Shown: positions 4,526 to 63,834 of the stretch, piece by piece
How positions within the stretch are numbered: position 1 is the first letter of the stretch
Layout: every line of letters begins with the position of its first letter
NCBI GenBank assembly: GCA_045617945.1
Contig: JAZLJS010000101.1
Coordinates: 11,529-75,528 of the forward strand
Source of the DNA: Lachnospiraceae bacterium
Lineage (GTDB): Bacteria > Bacillota > Clostridia > Lachnospirales > Lachnospiraceae
Length of the DNA: 64,000 nucleotides
Direction: 5' to 3'
Notes under the pieces: generated by a model
Database searches by the model: none
What the model was told of the DNA's origin: nothing
What the model saw: the letters and a program-made list of their open reading frames with translations, nothing else
Position numbers and translations under genes: made by a program

Positions 4526-5602
4526 GTGGAAAAGATTCTTGTAATTGACGATATGGAAATCAATTTGGAGATTCTGGAAGGGATTCTGGAGGATTATTAT
4601 TGTGTCCTTAAGGCGCATGACGGATTGGAAGCAGTACAGTTGTTAGATGAGAATCCGGATATTTCTTTGATGCTTTTGGATTTGTGCATGCCCAGAATGG
4701 ATGGCTTTGGTGTGATGAATGCCATGAAGGAAAGCGGTATGTTGGGACGTATTCCCATCATCGTCATCACGGGTGATGACTCTCTTGACAATGAGAGGCG
4801 ATGCTATGACTATGGTGTGAGTGACTTTATACGTAAGCCGTTTAACAGTACGATTGTACGTCTCAGAGTCGGAAATATCGTCAAACTGTATTCTTACAAG
4901 AACAGTTTGGAGGATACGGTTGCGGAACAGACCGAAGATCTGAAGAAACAGTATCTGTTGGTAAAGGAACAGGCTACAAAGCTTGTCGAATCCAATCAGA
5001 AGATTATCGATATTCTCGGTACTGTCGTTGAATCTCGTAATTTAGAGAGCGGACAGCATATTCAGCGTGTGAAGAATTATACTGAGATTCTTGCGAAACA
5101 GGTGATGGCGGATTGTCCGGAATATGGGATTACACAGCATGCGATTGATGTAATGGTTCCTGCGAGTGCACTTCACGATGTCGGTAAGATTGCGATTCCC
5201 GACAATATTCTTTTGAAGCCGGGTCGATTAACTTCCGAGGAATTCGATGTTATGAAAAGTCATACAATCAGGGGTTGTGAGATACTGGATAATATTAAAG
5301 GTGCCTGGGATAAAGAGTACGCCAGAATGAGTTATGAGATTTGTCGCTATCATCACGAGAAATACGACGGCAAGGGTTATCCTGACGGTTTGGTAGGGGA
5401 CGATATTCCCATTGCGGCACAGATTGTATCTGTTGCAGATATATATGATGCTCTCGTGAATGAACGTTGCTATAAGGATGCTTTTTCCAAAGAAAAAGCT
5501 TTTGAAATGATAACGCAGGGAGAGTGCGGTGCATTTTCAGATAAACTTATGAATGCGTTTTCAAAGGTGCGCGAAGAGTTTGAAAAGGTTACGGTCGGAT
5601 AG
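4526..5602 (+). CDS. Response regulator with HD-GYP c-di-GMP phosphodiesterase domain (RpfG type)
   Basis: REC motifs (ILVIDD, LMLLDLCMPRMDG, IRKP). HD-GYP motifs ALHDVGKIAIPD and HHEKYDGKGYPDG. GTG start 9 nt after AGGAG. Confidence 0.85.
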   Translation: MEKILVIDDMEINLEILEGILEDYYCVLKAHDGLEAVQLLDENPDISLMLLDLCMPRMDGFGVMNAMKESGMLGRIPIIVITGDDSLDNERRCYDYGVSDFIRKPFNSTIVRLRVGNIVKLYSYKNSLEDTVAEQTEDLKKQYLLVKEQATKLVESNQKIIDILGTVVESRNLESGQHIQRVKNYTEILAKQVMADCPEYGITQHAIDVMVPASALHDVGKIAIPDNILLKPGRLTSEEFDVMKSHTIRGCEILDNIKGAWDKEYARMSYEICRYHHEKYDGKGYPDGLVGDDIPIAAQIVSVADIYDALVNERCYKDAFSKEKAFEMITQGECGAFSDKLMNAFSKVREEFEKVTVG

Positions 5603-5647
5603 AATGATTGGTGCTTTTGGTGACTTTCTGACGGGGGATAGGGAATA

Positions 5648-7966
5648 ATGGTAAATGTTGGTGTGTTATATGCAATCACAGCCGGTGTGGCTGCTATGGT
5701 GGTTGCAGTAATTTATAATCGTTTGAATGCAACAGGGTTTAAGGATCAGATTGATCAGAAACTGAGTTATTTGATCCGTTTTGTTCTTATATTCTGTATG
5801 GTTGATATGCTTTGGGGACTGTTGACGGCCAGATTGCATCCTGTTCTGATTAATCAATTCCTTTATTCGATATTTACGTATGCGTTTCATTGCGGTGCAG
5901 CTTTATCCTCATTTTTATGGTTCGGATATGTTATCCATTATTTGGATGAAGAACGTGCTGCTTCCATGAAAGTGTTGAATATTATTCGCGGAACGCTTTT
6001 GACAGTTCAGTTCTTGATTTTGATCAGTAATTTGTGGAATCACAAGTTCTTTTCCATTGATGCGGATGCACAGTACCATTCATATGTTTTGCGCAATACT
6101 ATGTTTTATCTTCAGTTTGCGTATTATATCGGACTTATTCTCAACGGAATCATTAAATGGATTTATTATGGCCGTAAGGGCAGAGTAGATCGTGTGTCGA
6201 AATACAAGACATCTATACTTTATTCCTGCGTTCCGTTGGCATTTGGTGTCGGCCAGATGTTATGGCCGGATGCAAGTATGTATTCGTTGGGATTTATGCT
6301 TACCTGTACGTTAATCTATTCGTTTAGTATTACTTCCGAAAGAGAAGGATATTTGCGTGACTTTTACAAGAAAGAAAACAGTAAGCTGATGGAACTGGCA
6401 GCAGGTCTTTCCGACGATAGTGAAGCGGTATATTTCGTGAATCTGGAAACAAATGAATACGAGACATATATCAACAGCCGAAATTACCAGGATGGGGTTA
6501 ATGCCAAGATTAATCACGGTAAGGATTTCTTCGAAGACCTGAAGAGTAATATCGGTATGGTTATTGCTCCCGAAGATCGGGATATGGTCACGAAAATGCT
6601 TATGAAGGAGTATGTTTTGGAAGAACTTTCGACCAAGCCTTCTTTTAGTTTTAACTACAAAATTGATGTGAATGGGCAGGAAAGGTATTATCTGATGAAG
6701 ATAGTCAAGCCTGTCGAAATGTCCGGTAAAAATATTGTTATCGGTGTATTTGATGATGATGAACGTGTCAGAAGCGAGATAGAACAACGCAGTCGTCTGC
6801 AGGAGGCGATGGAGCAGGCGGAACGTGCCAACCAGGCCAAGACGAACTTCCTGTTTAATATGAGCCATGATATTCGTACACCCATGAATGCGATTTTGGG
6901 ATTTACGGATCTTGCCAAGAAGCATATGGATGATCCGAAGTATTTATTGGATTGCCTGGATAAAGTGTCTGTATCCGGCAATCATCTGCTGGCATTGATT
7001 AATGATGTTCTTGATATGTCCCGTATTGAATCCGGTAAGCTTGTGATTAATTCCAAGAATGAGAATATTCGGGAACAAAGTGAAGAAATCGTCTCCATTA
7101 TGAAAGAGCTGGCGATTGCCAAGAGCATTGCGTTTAATCCGATTTATAAGGATTTGACGACGGAGTATGTTGTATGTGATGCGCTCCATTTGAATAAGAT
7201 TTTGATGAATATTCTTTCCAATGCAATAAAGTATACGCCGATGGGTGGACGTGTGGATTATATTATGGAGCAGATGCCAAATGATAATCCCGATAAGGCA
7301 ACGTTTAGGTTTGTTGTGCAGGATACCGGCGTAGGAATGAGTAAGGAATTTCTGGAACATGTTTTTGATGAATTCGAGCGCGAGTATTCTGCCACATTAA
7401 GCGGCGTGGAAGGAACAGGTCTCGGAATGTCTATTGTTAAACAGCTGGTGGATATGATGCAGGGTACTATCAATATTCAGAGTATCCGTGGTATCGGTAC
7501 AACAGTTGAGTGTATATTGACTTTCCCGAAGGGTGAGGTAATTGCTTCACAAGAGGATCAACACCGTGAAGATGAATCTGTTGATTTCACGGGTAAGCGT
7601 ATTCTCCTTGTAGATGATAATATTCTGAATCGTGAAATTGCGAATGATATTTTGCAGGATATGGGGGTTGAAGTTGAAACGGCCGATGACGGTGTAGATG
7701 CATGTGAGATGGTAGAGGCTGCTGCTCCCGGTTATTATAACCTGATTCTGATGGATGTTCAGATGCCTCGTATGGACGGTTATCAGGCAACTCGGAATAT
7801 TCGTGCATTATCGAATCCGGAGCTGGCAAACATTCCTATCGTAGCCATGACCGCTAACGCATTTGAAGAGGACAAGAAGAATGCCTTCGATTCCGGTATG
7901 AATGCCCACCTTGCGAAGCCAATTCATGTTGATCGATTGACTGAAGTGCTGAAAAGATATTTGTAA
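5648..7966 (+). CDS. Hybrid sensor histidine kinase/response regulator with multi-TM N-terminus
   Basis: H-box MSHDIRTPMNAILGF, N-box NILSNAIKYTP, G-boxes QDTGVGMS and GTGLGMS. C-terminal REC (ILLVDDN, LILMDVQMPRMDG, HLAKP). Confidence 0.9.
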   Translation: MVNVGVLYAITAGVAAMVVAVIYNRLNATGFKDQIDQKLSYLIRFVLIFCMVDMLWGLLTARLHPVLINQFLYSIFTYAFHCGAALSSFLWFGYVIHYLDEERAASMKVLNIIRGTLLTVQFLILISNLWNHKFFSIDADAQYHSYVLRNTMFYLQFAYYIGLILNGIIKWIYYGRKGRVDRVSKYKTSILYSCVPLAFGVGQMLWPDASMYSLGFMLTCTLIYSFSITSEREGYLRDFYKKENSKLMELAAGLSDDSEAVYFVNLETNEYETYINSRNYQDGVNAKINHGKDFFEDLKSNIGMVIAPEDRDMVTKMLMKEYVLEELSTKPSFSFNYKIDVNGQERYYLMKIVKPVEMSGKNIVIGVFDDDERVRSEIEQRSRLQEAMEQAERANQAKTNFLFNMSHDIRTPMNAILGFTDLAKKHMDDPKYLLDCLDKVSVSGNHLLALINDVLDMSRIESGKLVINSKNENIREQSEEIVSIMKELAIAKSIAFNPIYKDLTTEYVVCDALHLNKILMNILSNAIKYTPMGGRVDYIMEQMPNDNPDKATFRFVVQDTGVGMSKEFLEHVFDEFEREYSATLSGVEGTGLGMSIVKQLVDMMQGTINIQSIRGIGTTVECILTFPKGEVIASQEDQHREDESVDFTGKRILLVDDNILNREIANDILQDMGVEVETADDGVDACEMVEAAAPGYYNLILMDVQMPRMDGYQATRNIRALSNPELANIPIVAMTANAFEEDKKNAFDSGMNAHLAKPIHVDRLTEVLKRYL

Positions 7967-8072
7967 GGGTTGTGGATGGTGAAAGGCATACAGATGTTGC
8001 AAGGGTTGTGAATGGTGAAGGCATACAGATGTTGCGAGGGTTGTGAATGGTGAAAGGACCATAGTGTTGTAG
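7967..8072. repeat. Tandem repeat, about 35-36 bp x 3
   Basis: GGGTTGTG(G/A)ATGGTGAA(A)GGCATACAGATGTTGC(A/G)A units start at 7967, 8003 and 8038. The first follows the kinase TAA stop directly. Confidence 0.85.
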
Positions 8073-8206: not shown

Positions 8207-8314
8207 ACGTTACTCATCAGCAACGTTGTTATATTAGCACAGAGACATTCGTTCGTCAAGGATGAATTACATTCGACATATCTAAATCAAATGGTGGATT
8301 CTTTTTTTCAGAGA

Positions 8315-8423
8315 GATGAATCTATGCGGTTTCAAAGGATGGATTTATGCGGTTTTCAATGATGGATTTATGTGGTTTCAAAAGATGGATTTATGCGGTT
8401 TCAAAGGATGGATTTATGCGGTT
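8315..8423. repeat. Tandem repeat, 23 bp x about 4.7
   Basis: GATGGATTTATGCGGTTTCAAAG units at 8315, 8338, 8361, 8384 and 8407, with 0-4 mismatches per unit. Confidence 0.9.
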
Positions 8424-8475: not shown

Positions 8476-8541
8476 CCTGGTGTGCATCTGGCGAGTATCT
8501 GGTGAGCGTCTGGTGAGTATCTGGTGAGCGTCTGATGAGTA
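8476..8541. repeat. Tandem repeat, 11 bp x 6 (22-bp higher order)
   Basis: TCTGGTGAG(C/T)(G/A) units run head to tail from 8476/8487 to 8541. Confidence 0.85.
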
Positions 8542-8641
8542 TTTGGTTATTTTGTTAAGGTTATGGTAAGATTATATTCAAGACACAGAAAGAATCTTTA
8601 TCCATAATTTAACAGTAAGAAGAAAAGAAAGGACGATTTAT

Positions 8642-9442
8642 ATGAAAAAAGAATTAAACGGAATAAAATTCTTTATGCCACTTATAGCTATTATTTGTGG
8701 ATTAGGTGGTGCATTTATTGCAGCAATTCCTCTGAAGTCTGATAATTTTGTTCTTTCCGAAAATCTGTTATCAATACTTCTGGAATCTGTTATTGTTGCC
8801 GTTACTATTTTTATAGCAATAAAATTTATACCTAAACTGTTTTCAAACTGCAGTAATTATTCAGTTAAAAAACCACAAGTTCCCATTATACTGGCTATAC
8901 TTCTCGTAATACCATTTATAAAAATACTTGAATATGATTTTATATATAAAATATCGTACGCAGAATCATCGAATATTGAAATACTACCGTTCATCGCTGA
9001 CTCTTTTCCGGAGACGCTTTTCGAGAGCATATCGGCTGTTTTATTAGCACCGGTATTGGAAGAACTTACCTTCAGATATATGGCATTAAGTCCATTCAAA
9101 AAACGCAGTTCCAGAATAATTGTACTAATCGTTGTTTCCTTAATATTTGGTCTTGTTCACAGTAGAAATTATATTGCAGTCACAATCGATGCCATTGTAT
9201 ATGGTATTATATTCCTCTCATCAAAGAACATAATCTATCCTATTATTTGCCATTCATTTTTCAATCTGACCAGTACAATATTTGGTATATTATCAACATT
9301 CAACATCACAAAAATAACATATACAAATGGTAGACCAATAGCTTTACTTTTTACTACAAATGCTCACATTTGCTTTGGTATATTGTTCTTTATTGGCATA
9401 ATTGTGTTGTGCTTATCCAACAAACGTAAATATTATATCTGA
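8642..9442 (+). CDS. CPBP family intramembrane glutamic endopeptidase (CAAX/Abi-type)
   Basis: Multi-TM protein with the three CPBP motifs: LEELTFRYM (EExxxR), FGLVHSRN (FxxxH), CHSFFNL (HxxxN). The gene is markedly AT-rich compared with its neighbours. Confidence 0.8.
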   Translation: MKKELNGIKFFMPLIAIICGLGGAFIAAIPLKSDNFVLSENLLSILLESVIVAVTIFIAIKFIPKLFSNCSNYSVKKPQVPIILAILLVIPFIKILEYDFIYKISYAESSNIEILPFIADSFPETLFESISAVLLAPVLEELTFRYMALSPFKKRSSRIIVLIVVSLIFGLVHSRNYIAVTIDAIVYGIIFLSSKNIIYPIICHSFFNLTSTIFGILSTFNITKITYTNGRPIALLFTTNAHICFGILFFIGIIVLCLSNKRKYYI

Positions 9443-9527
9443 ATGCAGTACATTCTGGAGTATCTCACCGGAAACGCTCGACTCGTAGAAATAGGATTCG
9501 GAGAATCACTCGTAGAAACACACTTTA

Positions 9528-9887
9528 TACCGATAAGATTTGCAAAAACGCGATTTTTATCGGTACGTTTTTACTCGAAAATTGAGCTGCGTACCGATAA
9601 GATTTGCAAAAACGCGATTTTTATCGGTACGTTTTTACTAAAAAAACGGGTTGCGTACCGATAAGATTTTTAAAAACTCAATTTTTATCGGTACAATCAG
9701 TCTATAAATGACGTTTTTCATACCGATAAGATTCTTACAAACGCAATTCTTATCGGTACGTGCGTTCTAAAATGTCATATTTTATACTGATAAGATTTCC
9801 CAAAACCCATTTCTTATCGGTACTTGCACCTCAGAACGACAAATTTCATACCGATAAAATTCCCCAAACCGCGATTCTTATCGGTAC
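9528..9887. repeat. Array of six 39-bp palindromic elements on a 64-65 bp period
   Basis: TACCGATAAGATT-N13-AATCTTATCGGTAC-like units at 9528, 9592, 9656, 9721, 9785 and 9849. Copies 1 and 2 are identical. The arms are conserved and the centres diverge. The 25-26 bp spacers are partly related to each other. Confidence 0.9.
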
Positions 9888-9956: not shown

Positions 9957-10046
9957 TTTCATTTCATATCGTGATTGTATTATTATGAAGTTGATGTGTG
10001 AGCACAGAACCGACAAAGCAGAAGTGACAGTAAAGAAGCAGCAGTA

Positions 10047-10127
10047 CAGAAGCAACAATATAGAGCCACAATTCAATAGCAATAGCACAGAAGCAACAGT
10101 GCAGAAGCAACAATACAGAGCCACAAT
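10047..10127. repeat. 26-bp direct repeat x 2 within a T-poor, CA/GA-rich leader
   Basis: CAGAAGCAACAATA(T/C)AGAGCCACAAT at 10047-10072 and 10102-10127. The roughly 130 nt before the ATG at 10160 contain very few T on the + strand. Confidence 0.8.
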
Positions 10128-10159
10128 ACAAATAGCAACAGTTAGGATATTACAGAGTT

Positions 10160-12103
10160 ATGCATAATTTATGTATCAGCCTTTTGGGTCATGTGGATGC
10201 CGGCAAAACGACTTTGACGGAGTCCTTATTGTATATAAGCGGTGCGATTCGCAAGCAGGGTCGTGTTGATAATAAAGATGCTTTTTTGGATACTTACGCG
10301 GTGGAGAAACAGCGCGGTATTACGGTGTTTTCAAAATGTGCCAGATTGATAGCTCCGAATGAGCGACAGTTAATTCTACTGGATACTCCGGGGCACGTTG
10401 ACTTCTCGGCGGAAGCCGAGCGTACGGCGGCTGTACTGGACGCAGCTGTGCTTATTTTGGGTGGAATGGATATGGTGACGGGCCATGCGATTCGATTATG
10501 GAAGTTGCTTCGCCAAAGTCATGTTCCCACGTTCATTTTCGTTAACAAATCGGATTTGGCAGGATTTGACTATGACGAAATCATGGACAGCATACACAGA
10601 AATTTGTCCGATGCGGCGGTGGATTTCGGCGGATGCTTGCGTTCGCCAAATCAGAATATAAGTATTCAGAATGAAAATGGTCGCAATATCGATGCGCAAC
10701 GTTTGGCGCAGCGTGATGAAGATGCGGCATCCTGCGACGAGACGTTAATGGAGATTTTCCTGGAAAAAGGGATGCTTTCTGATGAGGATTTGGCGGATGC
10801 GATACATCGGGAAGCGATTTTTCCGTGCTTTTGCGGAAGCGCTTTGAATAATGTCGGAACCGAAGAATTGCTGGAGGCATTACAAAGGTATGTTTCTCCA
10901 CGCAATACGCAGCTTCCCGGAGATATTGTCGGGGATGGATTTACGGGGCGTGTTGTGAAGATTTCATATGATGATAAGGGGAATCGTGAAACACATCTGA
11001 AGGTGATTTCGGGAACTCTTAAGGTGAAGAGCCTTCTTATGGGAGAGAAAGTCAATGAAGTCCGGTTATACAACGGAGCGAAGTATACGAATTGCGATAC
11101 CGTTTGCAGCGGAGATTTCTGTGCGATACTGGGGCCGACGATGACCAAGGCTTTTACGGATGGATTCTTTGCGCCCGTTATGTCGTACAGCGTGCATTCT
11201 TCTTCCTGCGCCGATCCGATGAAGCTGTTGGCGATTATGCGTCGTATTGAGGATATGCAGCCAGAAATTGCTCTTTCTTATAACAGTACAACAAAGGATA
11301 TGCAGGTGATGCTGATGGGTGTGATGCAAACGGAAGTTTTGCAGCATCTGGTGGCAGATTTGTATCATGAAAGCATTGAATTTGATGATCCGCGTATTGC
11401 GTACAGAGAAACAATTGCGCAGACTACGTTTGGCATCGGCCATTATGAGCCGCTTCGCCATTTTGCGGATGTGCATCTTCGCATGGATCCGATGCCGGTT
11501 GGAAGCGGCTTATCCTACGCGACGGAGATTTCCGAAGATGATTTGGCGGGTAATTGGCAACGATTGATTCTGACACATTTGAAGGAGAAGGAGCATGTCG
11601 GTGTGCTGACCGGCAGTCCGATTACCGATATGCAAATTACGCTGATTGACGGAAAGGCGCATTTAAAGCATACGGAGGGCGGCGACTTTCGCGAAGCGAC
11701 GTACCGTGCTGTGCGACAGGGCTTAATGAAGGCGGAAAGTCACTTGCTTGAGCCGATTTATGAGTATACACTTACTGTTCCAACGGAGTGCGTCGGGCGT
11801 GCAATTACAGACCTGCAATTGATGAAGGCAGAACATGATGTAACGGCTGATGCGCAGGGCAACAGTATAATCACAGGAAAATGTCCTGTTTCCGAAATGA
11901 ATGGATATGAGATTACAATGCAGTCCTATACAAAAGGCAGGGGACGGTTGGAGCTTGCGGTTGCGGGATATGCGCTGTGCCATAATGAAGAGGAAGTGAT
12001 TGCGCAATTCGGGTACGATCCTGAGAGAGATACACAGAACCCGGTTGATTCCGTATTTTGCTCGCACGGAGCCGGGCATATTGTGAAGTGGAATGAACTG
12101 TGA
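10160..12103 (+). CDS. Translational GTPase of the EF-G / Tet(M)-Tet(O) ribosomal-protection family (divergent)
   Basis: 647 aa. G1 [16 protein letters not shown], G3 DTPGHVDF, G4 NKSD. The N-terminus is collinear with my recollection of Tet(M) ([21 protein letters not shown]), and the length fits RPPs. Confidence 0.75.
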   Translation: [647 protein letters not shown]

Positions 12104-12165: not shown

Positions 12166-12525
12166 TTATAAAAATTTGCTTAAATGCGTTTTGATGGTCT
12201 CGAATGTTTCGTCGGAAATGTCGTGCTCGATCTTACAGGCGTCTTTTTGCGCGATATCCTCGCTGACGCCAATTCGTATAAGGGCTTCGGTAAGCAGTTT
12301 GTGACGCTCATACATTTTCTCGGCTATATCCAGACCTTTATTGGTTAATAAAAGATACCCGTTTGCGTCGGTTTCAATGCAACCGTCGTTTTTGAGGATG
12401 CTGACCGCACGCGAAACAGAGGGCTTGGAAAAGCCCATATATTCAGCCACATCTATGGATCGCACATCACCCTTCTGGGATAGAATGTGAATCGTTTCGA
12501 GATACATTTCACCGGATTCTTTCAT
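12166..12525 (-). CDS. DtxR/MntR-family metal-dependent transcriptional regulator (short form)
   Basis: Winged-HTH region MYLETIHILSQKG..VRSIDVAEYMGFSKPSVSRAVSILKNDG. I chose the internal ATG at 12525 because the longer ORF (to 12741) runs into the AraC gene. Confidence 0.75.
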   Translation of the reverse strand: MKESGEMYLETIHILSQKGDVRSIDVAEYMGFSKPSVSRAVSILKNDGCIETDANGYLLLTNKGLDIAEKMYERHKLLTEALIRIGVSEDIAQKDACKIEHDISDETFETIKTHLSKFL

Positions 12526-12622
12526 ATATGTTTGTCTGCCTTCTATTATGCACGTTTTGGCGCCGGCGATAATTCCGGCATAGAATATCCTTTCTTCACC
12601 TGCGAAATTTGGAGTGCAATAA

Positions 12623-13501
12623 TTACTCCTTACGCTGGTACTGCAGCCGACGCTGCTTTGGCGTGATATTGCGGAATTTCTTGTATGTTTTGATAAAATG
12701 GGAACTGTCGGTAAATCCCATTTCCTGACTGATATAATCAAGCGGGTAGTCTGTAAACAGGAGCATGTCGTCCGCCTTGCAGATGCGGATAAACTCTATA
12801 TATTCTTTACATGTCTTGCCGTATATTTCGCGGAAACGTTTCGCAAAGTAGGAATAACTCATATTACACATCACGGCCAGATCTTCTACCAGAATATTAT
12901 CGCCGGAGTGCGCATCGATATATTCCGTAATGTTATCGATGTCGGCATCGGTATCTTTGGTGACCGGAGCAGTTTTGGGAGAAAATCCTTTGGCAGCCCA
13001 GACGCGCAACAAATGAACGATGATTGCGCAAATAAGCGAATGCACCTGTATATCGTAGCCGTACTCCTTGGAATTCAGTTCATTAATGCAGGCATTGAAG
13101 AAATAATCTATCGGTATTCCGGCAAGCTCGTCTGCATGGAAAATGGGGGATACCGCTGAAGAAGTACGAACGGTTTCCAAAATGGATGCAATTCTCGGCG
13201 TATAACTGCTGTTTACGGTAAGCATGTTGGCATCAAACTTAATTACATCATATTTGAGTGCAACATGTGTTGTTGCATATACGGAATGAACCACCTTCGG
13301 TGGAAAAATCAGGAGATCGCCTGTTTCTACAGAGTAACTGCGATCGTCATATTCCATCATTCCGCATCCTTCCGTTACATATATAATTTCTGCAAAGTAG
13401 TGCCAATGCGGCTTGATCGGTGCGCCAAGCATACGTATGTCCTGTTTGAACGCTTCGTACGGATTGTTAATCGCATCGCTGTTTTCAAAAAGAAAATGCA
13501 T
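12623..13501 (-). CDS. AraC family transcriptional regulator (cupin N-domain plus HTH)
   Basis: N-terminal cupin-like region (PHWHYFAEIIYV, GDLLIFPPKVVH). C-terminal AraC HTH (MSYSYFAKRFREIYG, GFTDSSHFIKTYKKF). Confidence 0.85.
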   Translation of the reverse strand: MHFLFENSDAINNPYEAFKQDIRMLGAPIKPHWHYFAEIIYVTEGCGMMEYDDRSYSVETGDLLIFPPKVVHSVYATTHVALKYDVIKFDANMLTVNSSYTPRIASILETVRTSSAVSPIFHADELAGIPIDYFFNACINELNSKEYGYDIQVHSLICAIIVHLLRVWAAKGFSPKTAPVTKDTDADIDNITEYIDAHSGDNILVEDLAVMCNMSYSYFAKRFREIYGKTCKEYIEFIRICKADDMLLFTDYPLDYISQEMGFTDSSHFIKTYKKFRNITPKQRRLQYQRKE

Positions 13502-13627: not shown

Positions 13628-13748
13628 GTAAGAAACAGTATATGAAGTTTCGTAAGAAACAGTGTTTGAAACAGTATATGAAGTTTCATAAGAAACAGTG
13701 TTTGAAATCGTATATGAAATTGCGTTGGAAATAGTGTATGAAATTGTC
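13628..13748. repeat. Degenerate tandem repeats (12-nt core, 24/36-bp higher order) in the AraC/GH divergent intergenic region
   Basis: GTAAGAAACAG-TGTTTGAAACAG-TATATGAAGTTTC blocks are repeated. The core GAAACAGT(A/G)T(A/T)TGAA occurs about six times. Confidence 0.8.
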
Positions 13749-17481: not shown

Positions 17482-18748
17482 GAATATTGCACTGGCTATT
17501 TCATCTCTCCTGTCAAACAAGATGCGTGCTTTGCTGACGATGCTTGGAATTATTATCGGTATCGCTTCGGTTATTGCAATAGAAACGGTCGGTAATTCTC
17601 TGACCAATTCCTTTACATCAGAGATGGATTCCATGGGCGCCAACAATATTACTGTCGGCATACAATACAAACCTACAGAGGAAGAAACAACCGACTCGGG
17701 TATGACTTTTAGGGGACCCGAGAGGCAACGTGCAGCAACGGAAGATGATTTGGTAACGGATGAAATGCTGATGGACTACATTACGGAATTCCGTGACGAT
17801 ATACAGGACGTTTCCATATCGTCGAATTTGGGAAACGGCGAGGTTACGGTAGGCAATCATTCTGCCAAGGTCAGCGTAGTCGGCGGCAATCAGGGGTATT
17901 TTGCCGATGCCGATCTTACGATACTTGCAGGACACGAATTGGATGAAAAGGCATTTCGTGAGGGTAAAGGTGTATGCCTTGTGTCGGATTATCTGGTTGA
18001 TAAGCTTTACAAAGGTGAGAAAGAGAAGGCCTTGGGCGAAACCGTGGAAGCGGTTATCGGCAACAAATTCTATTCTTATACGATCGTCGGAGTCTATGAG
18101 TATGTAAGCAATGGGTTTAGTATGGAGTCGAGCGACAACAGAACGACAGATTTGTATACAGCCGTGAAATCAATTCAGAACAAGACACATGTGAAGGGCT
18201 ATGCTTCTTTTACCGTTATGATAGAAAACGGCGTGGATACGGATGATTTTATGAAGCGTACAGAGACATTCTTTGATAAATATTATCATCAGAATGACTA
18301 TTTTAAGATTTCCTGTTCTTCAATGAAGTCCCTAATCGGTTCGCTAACGGACATGCTGGATAAGATTTCTCTCGCGATTTCTATTATTGCAGGAATTTCG
18401 CTTTTGGTAGGCGGTATCGGTGTAATGAACATTATGCTGGTGTCCATTTCCGAGCGTACCCGTGAGATTGGTACCCGAAAAGCGCTTGGAGCAACAAACG
18501 CATCCATCCGCACGCAGTTTATCGTTGAATCCGTTGTGATGTGTTTAATTGGTGGCGTTTTCGGAATTATCGTAGGAGTGTTGGGCGGTTCATTTGGCGC
18601 GGAGAAGCTGGGTTATGCGGCAGCACCTTCCGTAAAGTCAATCGTAGTGTCGGTTCTGTTCTCCCTGTTTATCGGTGTATTCTTTGGGTTCTATCCGGCG
18701 AATAAGGCCGCTAAGATGAATCCGATTGATGCATTGAGATATGAGTAG
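17459..18748 (+). CDS. ABC transporter permease, FtsX/MacB family
   Basis: [31 protein letters not shown]-terminus, large extracytoplasmic loop, C-terminal FtsX helices (REIGTRKALGA). The start is uncertain; GTG at 17468 is equally plausible. Confidence 0.85.
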   Translation: MVSVLLLENIALAISSLLSNKMRALLTMLGIIIGIASVIAIETVGNSLTNSFTSEMDSMGANNITVGIQYKPTEEETTDSGMTFRGPERQRAATEDDLVTDEMLMDYITEFRDDIQDVSISSNLGNGEVTVGNHSAKVSVVGGNQGYFADADLTILAGHELDEKAFREGKGVCLVSDYLVDKLYKGEKEKALGETVEAVIGNKFYSYTIVGVYEYVSNGFSMESSDNRTTDLYTAVKSIQNKTHVKGYASFTVMIENGVDTDDFMKRTETFFDKYYHQNDYFKISCSSMKSLIGSLTDMLDKISLAISIIAGISLLVGGIGVMNIMLVSISERTREIGTRKALGATNASIRTQFIVESVVMCLIGGVFGIIVGVLGGSFGAEKLGYAAAPSVKSIVVSVLFSLFIGVFFGFYPANKAAKMNPIDALRYE

Positions 18749-37665: not shown

Positions 37666-37745
37666 AATTTGCAATAAACATAGTTTGCAATAAACACAGT
37701 TTGCAATAAACACAGTTTGCAATAACCACAGTTTGCAATAATCAG
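37666..37745. repeat. Tandem repeat, 16 bp x 5, directly upstream of the RHH gene
   Basis: A(G/A)TTTGCAATAA(A/C/T)CA(C/T/G) units at 37666, 37682, 37698, 37714 and 37730. The last ends 16 nt before the ATG at 37762. Confidence 0.9.
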
Positions 37746-37980: not shown

Positions 37981-38086
37981 AGGAGAGTTTCCCTTTTTTA
38001 TAAGTAAGCTGGAGCTTATTACGCGAAATTGAAAGGAGAGTTTCCTTTTTCCATAAGTAAAATGGAACTTATTGCGCGAAATTGAA
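37981..38086. repeat. Direct duplication, 53 bp x 2
   Basis: AGGAGAGTTTCC(C)TTTTT..ATAAGTAA..TGGA..CTTATT.CGCGAAATTGAA at 37981-38033 and 38034-38086, with about 45 of 53 positions identical by eye. Confidence 0.85.
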
Positions 38087-38108
38087 AAGAGAGTAAGGAG
38101 AGAAAGTT

Positions 38109-54022: not shown

Positions 54023-54670
54023 ATGAAAGACATACATATTACACGAGACCAGGTAAAGACAATATATGATGCGAAATTCTTAAAGATGTTTGATCTGCAG
54101 TATGCCGAGGGACGTCATTATTATAATGCCACACGTCGGAGCGCGGAGAATCTGGTTGCGCTTAAATCGGAAGAAGAATTTCAAAAGATGCTTCCGGATG
54201 CGGTTACTATTGCGGTTATCGTAACACTTCCGAATGATGAACCGAAGCTTCTGTTATCATACGAATACAGATATCCCGTGAGTCAGTTTTTACTTAGCCC
54301 TGTGGCGGGATTGATTGATGAGGAAGATATCGCTGCACCCAATCCGCTTGTTTCGGCAGCAATTCGTGAGATTAAGGAAGAATGCGGTCTGACGGTTAAA
54401 GAGTCTGATTCGGTGGAAGTAATTAATCCGTGCGCATTTTCTTCGCCGGGAATGACGGATGAGAGCAATGCATTTTTGTGTGCCCGGATCACCGTTTCTG
54501 ACCTTAGTGAGATGAATCAGGATGGTGCTGTCGGCGGCGAAGTCTTTGATGGATTCGAACTTTTGACGAAGGATGAAGCGAAGAAATTGTTTGCTGCCGG
54601 CAGAGATAAGAACGGTAATTTCTTCTCGCTGGCAACGTGGGCTGTTTTGGCATATTTTGCGAATTGTTGA
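54023..54670 (+). CDS. NUDIX hydrolase
   Basis: Nudix box GLIDEEDIAAPNPLVSAAIREIKEECGL (Gx5Ex7REUxEExGU-like). Confidence 0.8.
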   Translation: MKDIHITRDQVKTIYDAKFLKMFDLQYAEGRHYYNATRRSAENLVALKSEEEFQKMLPDAVTIAVIVTLPNDEPKLLLSYEYRYPVSQFLLSPVAGLIDEEDIAAPNPLVSAAIREIKEECGLTVKESDSVEVINPCAFSSPGMTDESNAFLCARITVSDLSEMNQDGAVGGEVFDGFELLTKDEAKKLFAAGRDKNGNFFSLATWAVLAYFANC

Positions 54671-54768
54671 TTTGGTGTATCTGCGAAGTTTGTTTTTGCA
54701 AATTGTTGATGTATTTGTGAAGAATATTTTGCGAATTGTTGATTTGGTGTATCCGTGAAGAATATTTG
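54652..54768. repeat. Tandem duplication (about 36-bp unit x 3; 30-nt exact copies 72 bp apart) across a stop codon and the next start
   Basis: ATATTTTGCGAATTGTTGATTTGGTGTATC at 54652-54681 and 54724-54753. Copy 1 contains the last codons and TGA of the NUDIX gene. Copy 2 ends 1 nt before the GTG at 54755. Confidence 0.9.
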
Positions 54769-61659: not shown

Positions 61660-62298
61660 ATGCGGGAAATAGATTTGGAATCATGGGAGCGCAAGAGCTT
61701 ATATGAAGGTTATATGGGATTTGATCGCGGATGTTTTAACATTACCGTGAAGATTCCGGCGCAGGAAACATATGATTATTGCAAAAGTCATGGGATTTCG
61801 TTTTTTCTGGCATCTTTATACGGAATAGCGCGAACGGCGAATGAGGTTGAGAACTTCAAATATCGAGAACTTTCGGAGGGCCATGTGGCAATTATGGATC
61901 CTGTGAATATTGTGACTCCTATCGATATAGGAAATGATTTGTTTAAAGAGATGGAGATGCGCTACTATCCGGAATTCGGGCAATTTGTGGAGGAAGCGAA
62001 CAAGGTTATTGCGTCGGCTAAGGGCCGCACGGATGCTTCGATGGGAGATTGCGACGAATATTCAATGATTGTCAGTTGTGTACCATGGATTCATTTTGAA
62101 GCATTGACACTTCCGGATTATACTTTTCGGCAGAGCACGCCGATCATTACGTACGGTCGCCTGAAGGACGGTGAGATACCTGTTAATATTCGCGCGCATC
62201 ATGCATTCATAGATGGTAAGCATGTCAGCCATTTTGTGGATCTGCTTGGCAAAATATGGGGGGAATCCTGCGGAATATTTGAATTCTTGAACTCTTGA
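61660..62298 (+). CDS. CAT-family (CatA-like) O-acetyltransferase
   Basis: 212 aa, collinear with type-A chloramphenicol acetyltransferases: W-x-R near the N-terminus, PWIHF, and the catalytic region AHHAFIDGKHVSHF (compare HHAVCDGFHV). AAAGGAG RBS. Confidence 0.75.
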   Translation: MREIDLESWERKSLYEGYMGFDRGCFNITVKIPAQETYDYCKSHGISFFLASLYGIARTANEVENFKYRELSEGHVAIMDPVNIVTPIDIGNDLFKEMEMRYYPEFGQFVEEANKVIASAKGRTDASMGDCDEYSMIVSCVPWIHFEALTLPDYTFRQSTPIITYGRLKDGEIPVNIRAHHAFIDGKHVSHFVDLLGKIWGESCGIFEFLNS

Positions 62299-62302
62299 GG
62301 TG

Positions 62303-62335
62303 TGGTCTCTTGGGGACGGGGTTAGGGGGTCATTT
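62303..62335. repeat. 33-bp direct repeat, copy 2 (downstream of the CAT-family gene, carrying the SD of the GNAT gene)
   Basis: TGGTCTCTTGGGGACGGGGTTAGGGGGTCATTT ends immediately before the ATG at 62336. Confidence 0.95.
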
Positions 62336-63181
62336 ATGAAGAAAGAATATTTTACAATTTTCGATGCTTGTTTTCCGAACATGAAGATTTCCTATGAAAT
62401 CTTTTGCGAACTGCTGCATGCAGATGATTGTGTTTGTTTTGAAAGCAAGGTTGATAATGAAATTTGTGCATTTGCCATTGTTGAAGATTCAGCGATTCGT
62501 CTTTTGTGTGTAAGCCCTTCAAAACAAAGGCGGGGTATTGGAACTGCGTTGTTTGCCGACATAGAAAAATATGCCGAAAGCAAAGGCTTTGACGAATTGC
62601 TTACCGGTGGTGTGTCCTCTAAACTGTTTATTGGCGCGACATCCGAAAGCTGGGGATTTTTTGAAAAAATGGGATTTGTATCCGTTGGCGGATGTGATGA
62701 AATGCTTCTTTTGTTGGATGACTTTCATTTTGATCAGCTTACATTGCACGGTAGCGATGTTGCCGAATATGGATGGTTTCAAGGGGATATGAACGACATC
62801 AGGTCTGCTGTTGCGCAGGTAAATGAGAATTGGGTACAGTTTTATACACAGCCCGATAATATATATGTTGCAACGGTGAACGGTGAAATCGCCAGTTTCT
62901 GTTTGGTTGATACCAATTGTCGGAATTATTTGACAGACAAGTATGGGAAAGTCGGAATGCCGGGGTGTGTTGGCTCAGTTCCCAAGTTCAGGGATAAAGG
63001 AATTGCTCTTGAAATGATTGCCAGAGTGACGGATTATCTAAAAGATCAAGGGATGGATATTTCTTTCATTTTCTTTACCGGAGTGGCAAAATGGTACGAA
63101 AAAATCGGGTACCGTACGTTTCTTTCGGAATGTTTTGGAGTAAAACGGCTGGACATTAGTAATCGGAGAATAAACCAGTGA
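62336..63181 (+). CDS. GNAT family N-acetyltransferase (two-domain)
   Basis: Acetyl-CoA motif VSPSKQRRGIGTALF. I chose the ATG at 62336 after AGGGGG. The upstream 12 codons in the ORF track lie in the repeat. Confidence 0.75.
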   Translation: MKKEYFTIFDACFPNMKISYEIFCELLHADDCVCFESKVDNEICAFAIVEDSAIRLLCVSPSKQRRGIGTALFADIEKYAESKGFDELLTGGVSSKLFIGATSESWGFFEKMGFVSVGGCDEMLLLLDDFHFDQLTLHGSDVAEYGWFQGDMNDIRSAVAQVNENWVQFYTQPDNIYVATVNGEIASFCLVDTNCRNYLTDKYGKVGMPGCVGSVPKFRDKGIALEMIARVTDYLKDQGMDISFIFFTGVAKWYEKIGYRTFLSECFGVKRLDISNRRINQ

Positions 63182-63345: not shown

Positions 63346-63405
63346 TTGTTGAGGCAGTGACTTTTCGCCATATTAATTACGTTGTTTTGTGAAATGGAGA
63401 GAATT

Positions 63406-63834
63406 ATGTTTAGTTATGTTTGGCCGTTGGGGCTTGTGGTTTTATCAAATGTTTTTTACCAGATTTGTGCAAAGTCAGTTCCCGATAGAATGAATCCGTT
63501 CGCGTCATTGACGATAACATATGTAGTAGGTGCGCTTGCATCGTTTATTATGTATTTTGTCTTAAACAGGGGCGGAAACATTACTGAAGAGTATCGGAAG
63601 GCCAATTGGGCGCCGTTTGTCTTGGGACTTGTTATTGTTGGTTTGGAAGTGGGCTACATTTATGCATATAAGGCAGGGTGGCCGGTAAGCGTTGCCCAAA
63701 TTGTACAAGCGGCGGTTTTGGCGGTTATATTGATATTTGTTGGATATATGCTTTATAAAGAAGCGATCACATGGAACAAAATAGTTGGAATTATTGTTTG
63801 CCTGGCCGGATTAGGGTTGATTAACTTAAAATAG
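63406..63834 (+). CDS. Small EamA/DMT-type membrane protein (single 5-TM half)
   Basis: 142 aa from the ATG at 63406 (after GGAGAG). Hydrophobic helices ending IVGIIVCLAGLGLINLK, typical of EamA domains. Confidence 0.65.
   Translation: MFSYVWPLGLVVLSNVFYQICAKSVPDRMNPFASLTITYVVGALASFIMYFVLNRGGNITEEYRKANWAPFVLGLVIVGLEVGYIYAYKAGWPVSVAQIVQAAVLAVILIFVGYMLYKEAITWNKIVGIIVCLAGLGLINLK

Follow-up and report, generated by a model that had tools for sequence, protein, structure and literature searches.

Results

An array of palindromes between two chromosomal genes

We analyzed a 64,000-nucleotide stretch, here called the window, from the Lachnospiraceae bacterium assembly GCA_045617945.1 (contig JAZLJS010000101.1, positions 11,529 to 75,528 of the forward strand), and focused on an array of six palindromic units at window positions 9528 to 9886, to which no strand was assigned. 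The array occupies a 717-bp gap between two plus-strand genes: a CPBP/Rce1-like intramembrane protease gene (8642 to 9442), whose stop codon lies 85 bp before unit 1, and a gene encoding an EF-G/Tet(M)-like translation-factor GTPase (10160 to 12103), which starts 273 bp past unit 6 and carries EF-Tu/EF-G domains according to a Pfam scan. It sits upstream of the GTPase promoter region. The gene content of the window is that of an ordinary chromosome, with two-component and cyclic di-GMP signaling, glycoside hydrolases, ABC transporters, and a tRNA cluster.

The six 38-bp units are dyad symmetric, have the form TACCGATAAGA-N16-TCTTATCGGTA (40 bp if the flanking G/C is counted), and are separated by spacers of 26 to 27 bp. 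They start at positions 9528, 9592, 9656, 9721, 9785, and 9849, giving periods of 64, 64, 65, 64, and 64 bp by direct reading and alignment; Tandem Repeats Finder reported a repeat at 9527 to 9887 with a period of 64, 5.6 copies, 76% matches, and a score of 271. These values agree with the copy number, starts, and periods given in a first-pass annotation of this DNA, whose unit length of 39 bp was 1 bp too long. Units 1 (9528 to 9565) and 2 (9592 to 9629) share the sequence TACCGATAAGATTTGCAAAAACGCGATTTTTATCGGTA and, as that annotation had also reported, each is followed by CGTTTTTAC (9566 to 9574 and 9630 to 9638, plus strand). Unit 3 (9656 to 9693) reads TACCGATAAGATTTTTAAAAACTCAATTTTTATCGGTA, and unit 4 (9721 to 9758) has perfect 11-bp arms. 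The left arm is TACTGATAAGA, with a single C-to-T change, in unit 5 (9785 to 9822) and TACCGATAAAA in unit 6 (9849 to 9886).

Alignment of the six units gave 28 invariant columns, 27 of them within the palindrome plus one base (27 of 39 columns) and one within the 26-nt spacers, while the 16-nt centers vary from unit to unit. To judge from this alignment, the window spacers share descent but have diverged. Recent tandem duplication is visible in the identity of units 1 and 2, and also in a related array (locus L030, described below) in which four units are 96 to 100% identical. Since 64 bp is not divisible by three, the reading frame shifts with every unit, and the array is therefore noncoding. 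The motif is confined to 9528 to 9886, and there is no second copy of the unit in the 64 kb. Allowing up to one mismatch, the 11-mer arm matched 12 times in the array and twice outside it, as lone arms at 17551 and 48615; 0.68 matches are expected for the whole window, and none of 100 shuffled sequences reached 14.

The CGTTTTTAC tails, which place a U-run after a hairpin 3' of the CPBP gene, look terminator-like. A simple terminator scan did not flag unit 1 with its CGTTTTTAC tail. To judge from their sequence, units 1 and 2 with their tails may serve to terminate CPBP transcripts too. The U-run tail is local to the window array and is not a property of the family: the base-frequency table of the wider family has no T-run 3' of the right arm. 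Two other short motifs lie in the same gap. Between unit 1 and the CPBP stop codon, the direct repeat ACTCGTAGAAA occurs at 9481 to 9491 and again 27 bp further on, at 9508 to 9518. On the other side of the array, ATTTCATATCG at 9961 to 9971 is similar to ATTTCATACCG, the junction at the start of units 4 and 6, and may be a remnant of a decayed unit, though it is out of the 64-bp register.

Related arrays in Clostridia and Treponema

We scanned one genome per species (185,579 species) with the single-unit pattern TACCGATAA-N19-21-TTATCGGTA. The matches were mostly scattered singles, plus true arrays. The arrays included one of 8 units with a period of 63 to 64 bp in Lachnospiraceae RUG11393 (L030); three on separate contigs of Saccharofermentans Horse_feces246 (L036, L043, and L046) with periods of 73 to 74 bp and some of 63 to 64 bp; two in an uncultured Clostridia bin (L010 and L023) with periods of 74 to 75 bp; one in a Clostridiales metagenome-assembled genome (MAG) with periods of 75, 83, and 75 bp (L082); and one of 3 units with a period of 63 to 64 bp in Treponema (L081). 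A metagenome scan with a two-unit pattern, which forced one period per array into the range of 56 to 82 bp, yielded many further arrays.

Arrays of this family have 3 to 8 units with the core CCGATAA-N20-TTATCGG. Over 103 distinct units, the half-site is T-W-CCGATAA-A/G-A, and the 34-bp form is dominant within a range of 33 to 36 bp; in the base-frequency table, CCGATAA and TTATCGG are conserved at 93 to 100% per position. Unit flanks are T-W across the family and GTAC in the window. Spacers of different arrays, by contrast, show no relationship to one another, and their G+C content runs from 16% to 72%. The array L081 was assigned to Treponema through its flanking PurF, which is 84 to 90% identical to named Treponema proteins, and a second array (L196) through its flanking MalQ, which is 64 to 68% identical to Treponema proteins. 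On these assignments, the palindrome-array family spans Bacillota and Spirochaetota.

Placement is intergenic, usually 30 to 140 bp past the 3' end of a gene, and four arrays lie between convergent genes. The neighbors are unrelated to one another and include a deaminase and a signal recognition particle (SRP) RNA gene, a nucleoside triphosphate (NTP) transferase, pyrroline-5-carboxylate (P5C) reductase, GNAT, ArsC, purF, and malQ. Several arrays with unrelated spacers were seen in some genomes. In array-bearing MAGs, all exact matches fell in arrays or pairs, with at most three arrays per MAG. Phage contigs had no array by either pattern, only unrelated single matches, and a BLAST search of a plasmid collection gave no match. 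Rfam 15 produced nothing at gathering score on the window array or on 15 other array loci; at a permissive threshold, the window gave only noise, such as plant microRNA models far below cutoff.

At L030, a tadA-like deaminase gene lies on one side of the array and the SRP RNA gene on the other; the latter is at 6380 to 6571, between a 30-bp tandem repeat (4.5 copies, 6599 to 6734) and a radical-SAM open reading frame (ORF). That repeat is one of several short-period tandem repeats, unrelated to the palindromes, that adjoin palindrome units; another, of about 32 bp by 3 copies, lies near 5560 to 5650 at L032. Genes for tRNAs lie 0.2 to 1.3 kb from the arrays at L158 and L135 and in the window.

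Some of the single matches are of interest in their own right. In the Verrucomicrobiae MAG MFD03250.bin.1.70, ACCGATAAAACGTAACGGCCGTTACGTTTTATCGGT is a dispersed, near-perfect palindrome with arms like those of the window units. It occurs at L006 (6242), L029 (2519 and 2685), and L067 (4285, 7078, and 7898). These 6 copies fall within 24 kb of a genome with 65% G+C; most lie just 3' of genes, and one is a compensated variant. It looks like a classical repetitive extragenic palindromic (REP)-type family in a third phylum; it could be related to the arrays or a coincidence. Single palindromes with TACCGATAA arms, conserved from genus to genus, were also found in Porphyromonas, Hoylesella, Prevotella, and an unclassified Bacteroidetes MAG (L018, L037, L045, and L061), with the rough form TGTTACCGATAAGTAAC-N-GTTACTTATCGGTAACA and one or two inner-arm mismatches in some copies. 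Another conserved site with TACCGATAA arms is common to three cyanobacterial genomes, two of them Pseudanabaena (L001, L003, and L071). The Bacteroidetes and cyanobacterial palindromes may represent operators or independent structured elements. We dismissed as chance matches the single palindromes at L066, L021, L074, and L013, which lie inside coding regions or form bidirectional terminators, and likewise L120 and several other metagenome matches that fall inside genes.

Whole-turn spacing, A/T phasing, and predicted curvature

In the arrays found with the single-unit pattern, which is unbiased with respect to spacing, periods were mostly 63 to 65 or 73 to 75 bp, with one of 83 bp and one interval of 189 bp (L046). 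Across 21 arrays, 51 distinct dyad-to-dyad distances form clusters at 63 to 65, 73 to 75, 93.5 to 95.5, and 105 to 106 bp, which correspond to 6, 7, 9, and 10 whole helical turns. At 10.5 bp per turn, these distances gave a Rayleigh R of 0.70 with a mean phase of 0.04 turn, duplication-related units included.

The strongest A/T-dinucleotide spectral peak fell at 10.25 to 10.75 bp in 14 of 17 arrays. Phase-locked A/T periodicity was also present in the spacers alone, with the palindromes removed, where it peaked at 10 to 10.5 bp (z of about 8 for 77 spacers, and 0.9 to 5.8 with a median of about 3.4 when one spacer per array was taken). Intrinsic curvature was predicted with two wedge models, whose figures are approximate. 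By these models, the window array is the second or third most curved segment in the 64 kb. With the De Santis tables, 13 of 15 other arrays were within the top 0.6% of windows at their own locus, and most other arrays were in the top 1% of their own loci by at least one model.

Conservation of symmetry and of arm sequence

In 65 ungapped 42-nt units, the 11 proposed base pairs were formed in 89.7% of cells, compared to 35 to 55% when the partners were slid, and both-sided changes were seen in 7 of the 11 pairs. Such dyad symmetry fits either hairpin pairing or a symmetric protein site kept by palindrome-correcting mutation. The dyad itself bears an A-run or a T-run, and both kinds occur in 8 of 21 arrays. 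At position 8, G faces T or A faces C, in one arm or the other and sometimes within one array; the G-T combination is on the sense strand in the window, and at L030 it is antisense to both flanking genes.

A pair of orthologous arrays, L211 and L172, enabled us to compare rates of change. None of 56 arm columns differed between them, compared to 24 of 187 spacer columns (12.8%), 47 of 466 columns in the downstream ORF (10.1%), and 19 of 80 columns in the unit centers (23.8%), which are the fastest-changing part. At the spacer rate, about 7 arm changes would be expected, and by our calculation the chance of seeing none is about 5e-4. This comparison indicates that the array arms are under purifying selection, as the first-pass annotation had proposed for the window. 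One center, CGCC..GGCG in L211, has been replaced by CCTG..CAGG in L172 and is still self-complementary. The arrays themselves come and go: Treponema relatives with PurF 88 to 95% identical, and others with MalQ 81 to 89% identical, have no array at the corresponding position.

Discussion

Phased sites for a putative DNA-binding protein

The reading that we favor, tentatively and at somewhat less than an even chance, is that the family consists of phased arrays of dyad-symmetric sites for a putative DNA-binding protein on curved double-stranded DNA. Each 34- to 38-bp unit would be one such site, with the half-site T-W-CCGATAA-R-A and an A/T run at the dyad, and the putative sequence-specific protein would bind it as a dimer or higher oligomer. 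Units are spaced by whole turns (6 turns, or 64 bp, in the window and 7, 9, or 10 in other arrays), and A/T tracts recur every 10.5 bp across units and spacers. Whole-turn spacing and phased tracts would together put all sites on one side of intrinsically curved DNA, and bound proteins could stack or wrap the DNA into a cooperative complex. Protein binding, its cooperativity, and the purpose of the array are what we infer; the likely roles would be structural or topological, such as a barrier or roadblock, a titration locus, or a place that recruits a topoisomerase or a nucleoid protein to the ends of genes. Among the options raised in the first-pass annotation, an array of dimeric protein-binding sites appears to fit best, given the whole-turn spacing, the 10.5-bp A/T phasing, and the predicted curvature.

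We also considered a more specific version, which we regard as speculative and less probable, in which the arrays are cis sites of an undescribed chromosomal DNA-organizing system shared by rumen and gut Clostridia and Treponema. In that version, a protein would polymerize on the whole-turn-phased palindromes and wrap curved DNA at gene ends, perhaps having spread between Clostridia and Treponema by horizontal transfer. Such a "positioning array" would act as a topological or transcriptional insulator, or as a recruitment site for gyrase or a nucleoid protein.

Several observations weigh against a protein-bound array. Cells in which both partners of a pair had changed numbered 52, versus 21.6 ± 3.8 in shuffled sets, and symmetric double changes occur within single arrays, as in CGGATAA/TTATCCG (L082) and CCTATAA/TTATAGG (L135); CCGTCAA/TTGACGG and CCGACAA/TTGTCGG are further arms compensated within an array. 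Unit centers are more self-complementary, in terms of hairpin stability, than shuffled ones (mean z of about -0.65). Hairpin pairing predicts both the double changes and the self-complementary centers, whereas a homodimer site needs palindrome-correcting mutation to account for them. Close relatives lack the arrays at the same loci, a pattern closer to that of accessory or selfish DNA than to what an essential host site would show. Half-site centers are about 27 to 29 bp apart, which is no whole number of turns. Duplication-related units within arrays inflate the z-scores and the Rayleigh P value, the curvature figures are approximate, and with the Trifonov tables several arrays (L030, L043, and L036) have no unusual curvature. 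No candidate binding protein was found among the array neighbors, and no protein family recurs beside the arrays in an all-against-all BLAST comparison of ORFs around 21 to 49 arrays; the exceptions were syntenic duplicates and one family that, going by its window member alone, is probably an ABC transporter. The half-site matched no operator known to us. Comparisons made by eye with the DnaA box, dif/Xer arms, hix/gix sites, the HipB operator, NarL heptamers, and the integration host factor (IHF) consensus led us to reject each of these for wrong spacing or orientation.

A possible hairpin element of the REP type

The main rival explanation, less probable in our view but a serious one, is that each unit is a stem-loop in single-stranded DNA or RNA, akin to REP sequences, to the hairpin-forming REP doublets known as REPINs, or to bacterial interspersed mosaic elements (BIMEs), and that the arrays are accessory or selfish DNA. 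A trans-acting enzyme, whether RAYT-like or of another kind, would propagate or maintain them, or they would serve as stabilizers or terminators of transcript 3' ends; they would grow by tandem duplication. Much of the evidence on symmetry speaks for this explanation: pairing is retained through double changes, a whole center was exchanged between L172 and L211 without loss of self-complementarity, and the centers add to hairpin stability. So do the placement past gene 3' ends and between convergent genes, the gain and loss of arrays between close relatives, the presence of several arrays with unrelated spacers in one genome, the dispersed palindrome with the same arms in the Verrucomicrobiae MAG, and the U-run after window units 1 and 2. 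There is also a precedent in REPIN clusters, which have been described as tandem REPINs plus flanks; such clusters expand when a unit is duplicated along with its flank (PMC3116915), a likeness to the window family.

What a hairpin element leaves unexplained is the geometry: the whole-turn spacing, the 10.5-bp A/T phasing of unrelated spacers, and the predicted curvature. A hairpin acting in RNA predicts none of these features, nor the mixed runs at the dyad, nor the strand-free behavior of position 8. A-run and T-run centers are mixed within arrays, there is no strand-consistent G-U pattern, and array polarity is independent of the direction of flanking genes, as the comparison of L030 with the window illustrates. 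Copy number is low, with matches in arrays or pairs rather than in hundreds of singles. The family lacks a T-run after the stem, its unit flanks are not of the 5' GTAG type, and no Y1 transposase was found among the neighboring genes that we examined. One arm sequence is common to two phyla, whereas REP families are normally lineage specific. Protein-site and hairpin explanations are not fully exclusive by analogy, since BIMEs are both.

Like the Escherichia coli BIME-2/REP arrays (e.g., REP325) and the Pseudomonas REPIN clusters, the family is intergenic and mostly past gene 3' ends, and is built of tandem imperfect palindromes with conserved arms, variable loops, and compensated stem changes. 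BIME-2 arrays bind DNA gyrase, a DNA-wrapping enzyme. BIMEs, however, alternate Y and Z REPs, while the units of the window family all have one orientation; among the neighbors examined there is no RAYT gene; and REP and BIME elements number tens to hundreds per genome, mostly as singles or doublets, whereas the family has few arrays and essentially no single copies. To our knowledge, whole-turn spacing with 10.5-bp A/T phasing has not been reported for REP clusters. A scattered element resembling REPs or miniature inverted-repeat transposable elements, which the first-pass annotation had also considered, is borne out to the extent that the unit recurs in several loci and genomes, but not in its distribution, with few arrays per genome instead of hundreds of singles.

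Tandem duplication, sigma-28, and the downstream GTPase

A neutral 64-bp tandem duplication, i.e., a functionless minisatellite whose symmetry is kept by template-switch (quasi-palindrome) mutation and gene conversion between units, would account for the recent duplications in the window and at L030 and for the turnover of arrays among relatives, and the window has many other intergenic tandem repeats. We consider it improbable. The 7-mer arms are invariant across two phyla amid spacers of 16 to 72% G+C, the orthologous arrays L211 and L172 have unchanged arms and spacers that differ by 13%, and periods of 64 and 74 bp recur in independent lineages.

Still less probable is the idea that the units are promoters for sigma-28 (FliA/SigD), or a decoy that titrates the sigma-28 holoenzyme, with CCGATAA as the core of the -10 element. 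The -10 element of sigma-28 is conserved across phyla, and motility is common among the host taxa. All 7 positions of the arm core agree with the FliA -10 motif, GCCGATAA (PMC4183435). Window units 3 to 5 carry TAAA 13 to 14 nt upstream of ACCGATAA, but at the -35 position, about 15 nt before the -10 element, the family shows no enrichment of TAAA when about 105 half-sites per side are counted. CC is preceded by A or T rather than G, the two arms would be convergent promoters separated by 20 bp, and the compensated arm variants change core -10 positions.

We give very little credence to a multihairpin leader or attenuator of the Tet(M)-like GTPase gene, an option put forward in the first-pass annotation. 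The array is 273 bp upstream of that gene on the same strand, units 1 and 2 look terminator-like, and a leader containing terminator hairpins regulates tet(M) in Tn916. Comparison argues otherwise: the upstream gaps (133, 36, and 118 bp) of the three closest GTPase homologs, at 52 to 56% identity, contain no unit, and related arrays adjoin unrelated genes (deaminase, SRP RNA, purF, malQ, NTP transferase, and GNAT). This GTPase family is found widely among the chromosomes of Lachnospiraceae. A leader peptide or ORF is absent, and it is the units furthest from the gene that bear the terminator-like tails. A functional tie between the GTPase and the array is thus not supported by the comparative evidence.

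A CRISPR array, or the RNA repeat of a type III toxin-antitoxin system of the ToxI kind, is effectively refuted: the layout is alike (repeats of about 38 nt and spacers of about 26 nt, in tandem upstream of a gene), but the repeat centers differ, the spacers are homologous to one another, neighboring genes vary from locus to locus, the downstream gene encodes an EF-G-like GTPase instead of a ToxN, CptN, or TenpN endoribonuclease, and there were neither phage matches nor cas genes among the 43 large window ORFs scanned. A diverged tandem repeat, as the first-pass annotation preferred to read it, is the better description, and no cas genes with matching protospacers came to light in those ORFs or in phage contigs. 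CRISPR arrays resemble the family in alternating a partly palindromic repeat of about 38 bp with spacers of 26 to 36 bp; the family differs in having varying centers and homologous spacers, and cas genes, a leader, and protospacers were not found.

Partition sites, iterons, and novelty

In geometry, the phased protein-binding arrays that we favor resemble the tandem palindromes of the F-plasmid centromere sopC or the gyrase-binding BIME-2 arrays of E. coli. Both sopC of the F plasmid (12 repeats of 43 bp, with a SopB-bound inverted repeat in each) and parC of R1 have, like the family, one dyad site per tandem unit and a period near a whole number of helical turns. In sopC and parC, curved DNA is wrapped into one nucleoprotein complex. 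The arrays differ from these sites in being chromosomal, among housekeeping genes and several per genome, and in having periods of 64 to 105 bp rather than 11 to 43 bp; ParA/ParB/ParR-like domains were absent from the 43 large window ORFs and from scanned neighbors at other loci. The datA locus (DnaA boxes plus an IHF site) and iterons share with the family the arrangement of a promoter-independent cluster for one protein, possibly a decoy or sink. There are no replication genes nearby, however, and the units are long palindromes instead of short direct iterons. TTATCGGWA matches the DnaA box TTATCCACA at 6 of 9 positions and lacks the CAC triplet, which is critical in that box.

Searches of the literature by sequence words and descriptive terms returned nothing on this element, an absence that is weak evidence, and the array family is apparently undescribed. 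Intergenic palindrome arrays are already known as a general kind (PMC3116915). What is new, as far as we know, is the combination of arms common to two phyla, whole-turn spacing with phased A/T tracts, and occurrence mainly in arrays. A short word, the inverted CCGATAA pair, that is constant across two phyla while the intervening DNA is free to change merits the attention of specialists; together with the helical-repeat spacing, it would be the signature of a specific protein-DNA architecture that has seemingly not been annotated before. Should a binding protein exist, the arrays would make a natural model, defined by its sequence, for how DNA is wrapped cooperatively in anaerobes that are otherwise difficult to work with. 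If the hairpin explanation is true, the biology of REP and BIME elements would extend to Clostridia and spirochetes, raising the question of how one arm sequence persists across phyla. Annotations of the window should label the array neither as a CRISPR nor as a regulatory leader belonging to the Tet(M)-like GTPase gene.

Other features of the window

Pfam scans took in 43 of the 62 window ORFs of at least 150 amino acids and detected no cas, partition, or transposase genes among these 43; the nonnested ORFs of at least 150 amino acids outside the scans lie at 12166 to 12741, 61660 to 62298, 62300 to 63181, and 63382 to 63834. Exact-protein lookups of the products of both genes flanking the array found none on record. 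The best homologs of the GTPase are 48 to 56% identical, and the source organism is therefore poorly sampled. At 647 amino acids, the window GTPase is shorter than most of its homologs in Lachnospiraceae (870 to 920 amino acids, about 48% identity), and it is missing the C-terminal NYN domain (PF05991) of the longer ones.

A separate tandem repeat, (CAGAAGCAACAGTA)n, with periods of 14, 28, and 55 bp and no assigned strand, lies at 10004 to 10142 and is unrelated to the array; it is T-poor and ends 17 nt upstream of the GTPase start codon. Tandem Repeats Finder showed the window to be unusually rich in intergenic tandem repeats, with periods of 16 to 53 bp, at 2484 to 2564, 7961 to 8057, 8306 to 8423, 8477 to 8547, 13632 to 13743, 37668 to 37741, 37981 to 38094, and 54652 to 54767. 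Their number suggests that the noncoding DNA of this genome is prone to tandem duplication.

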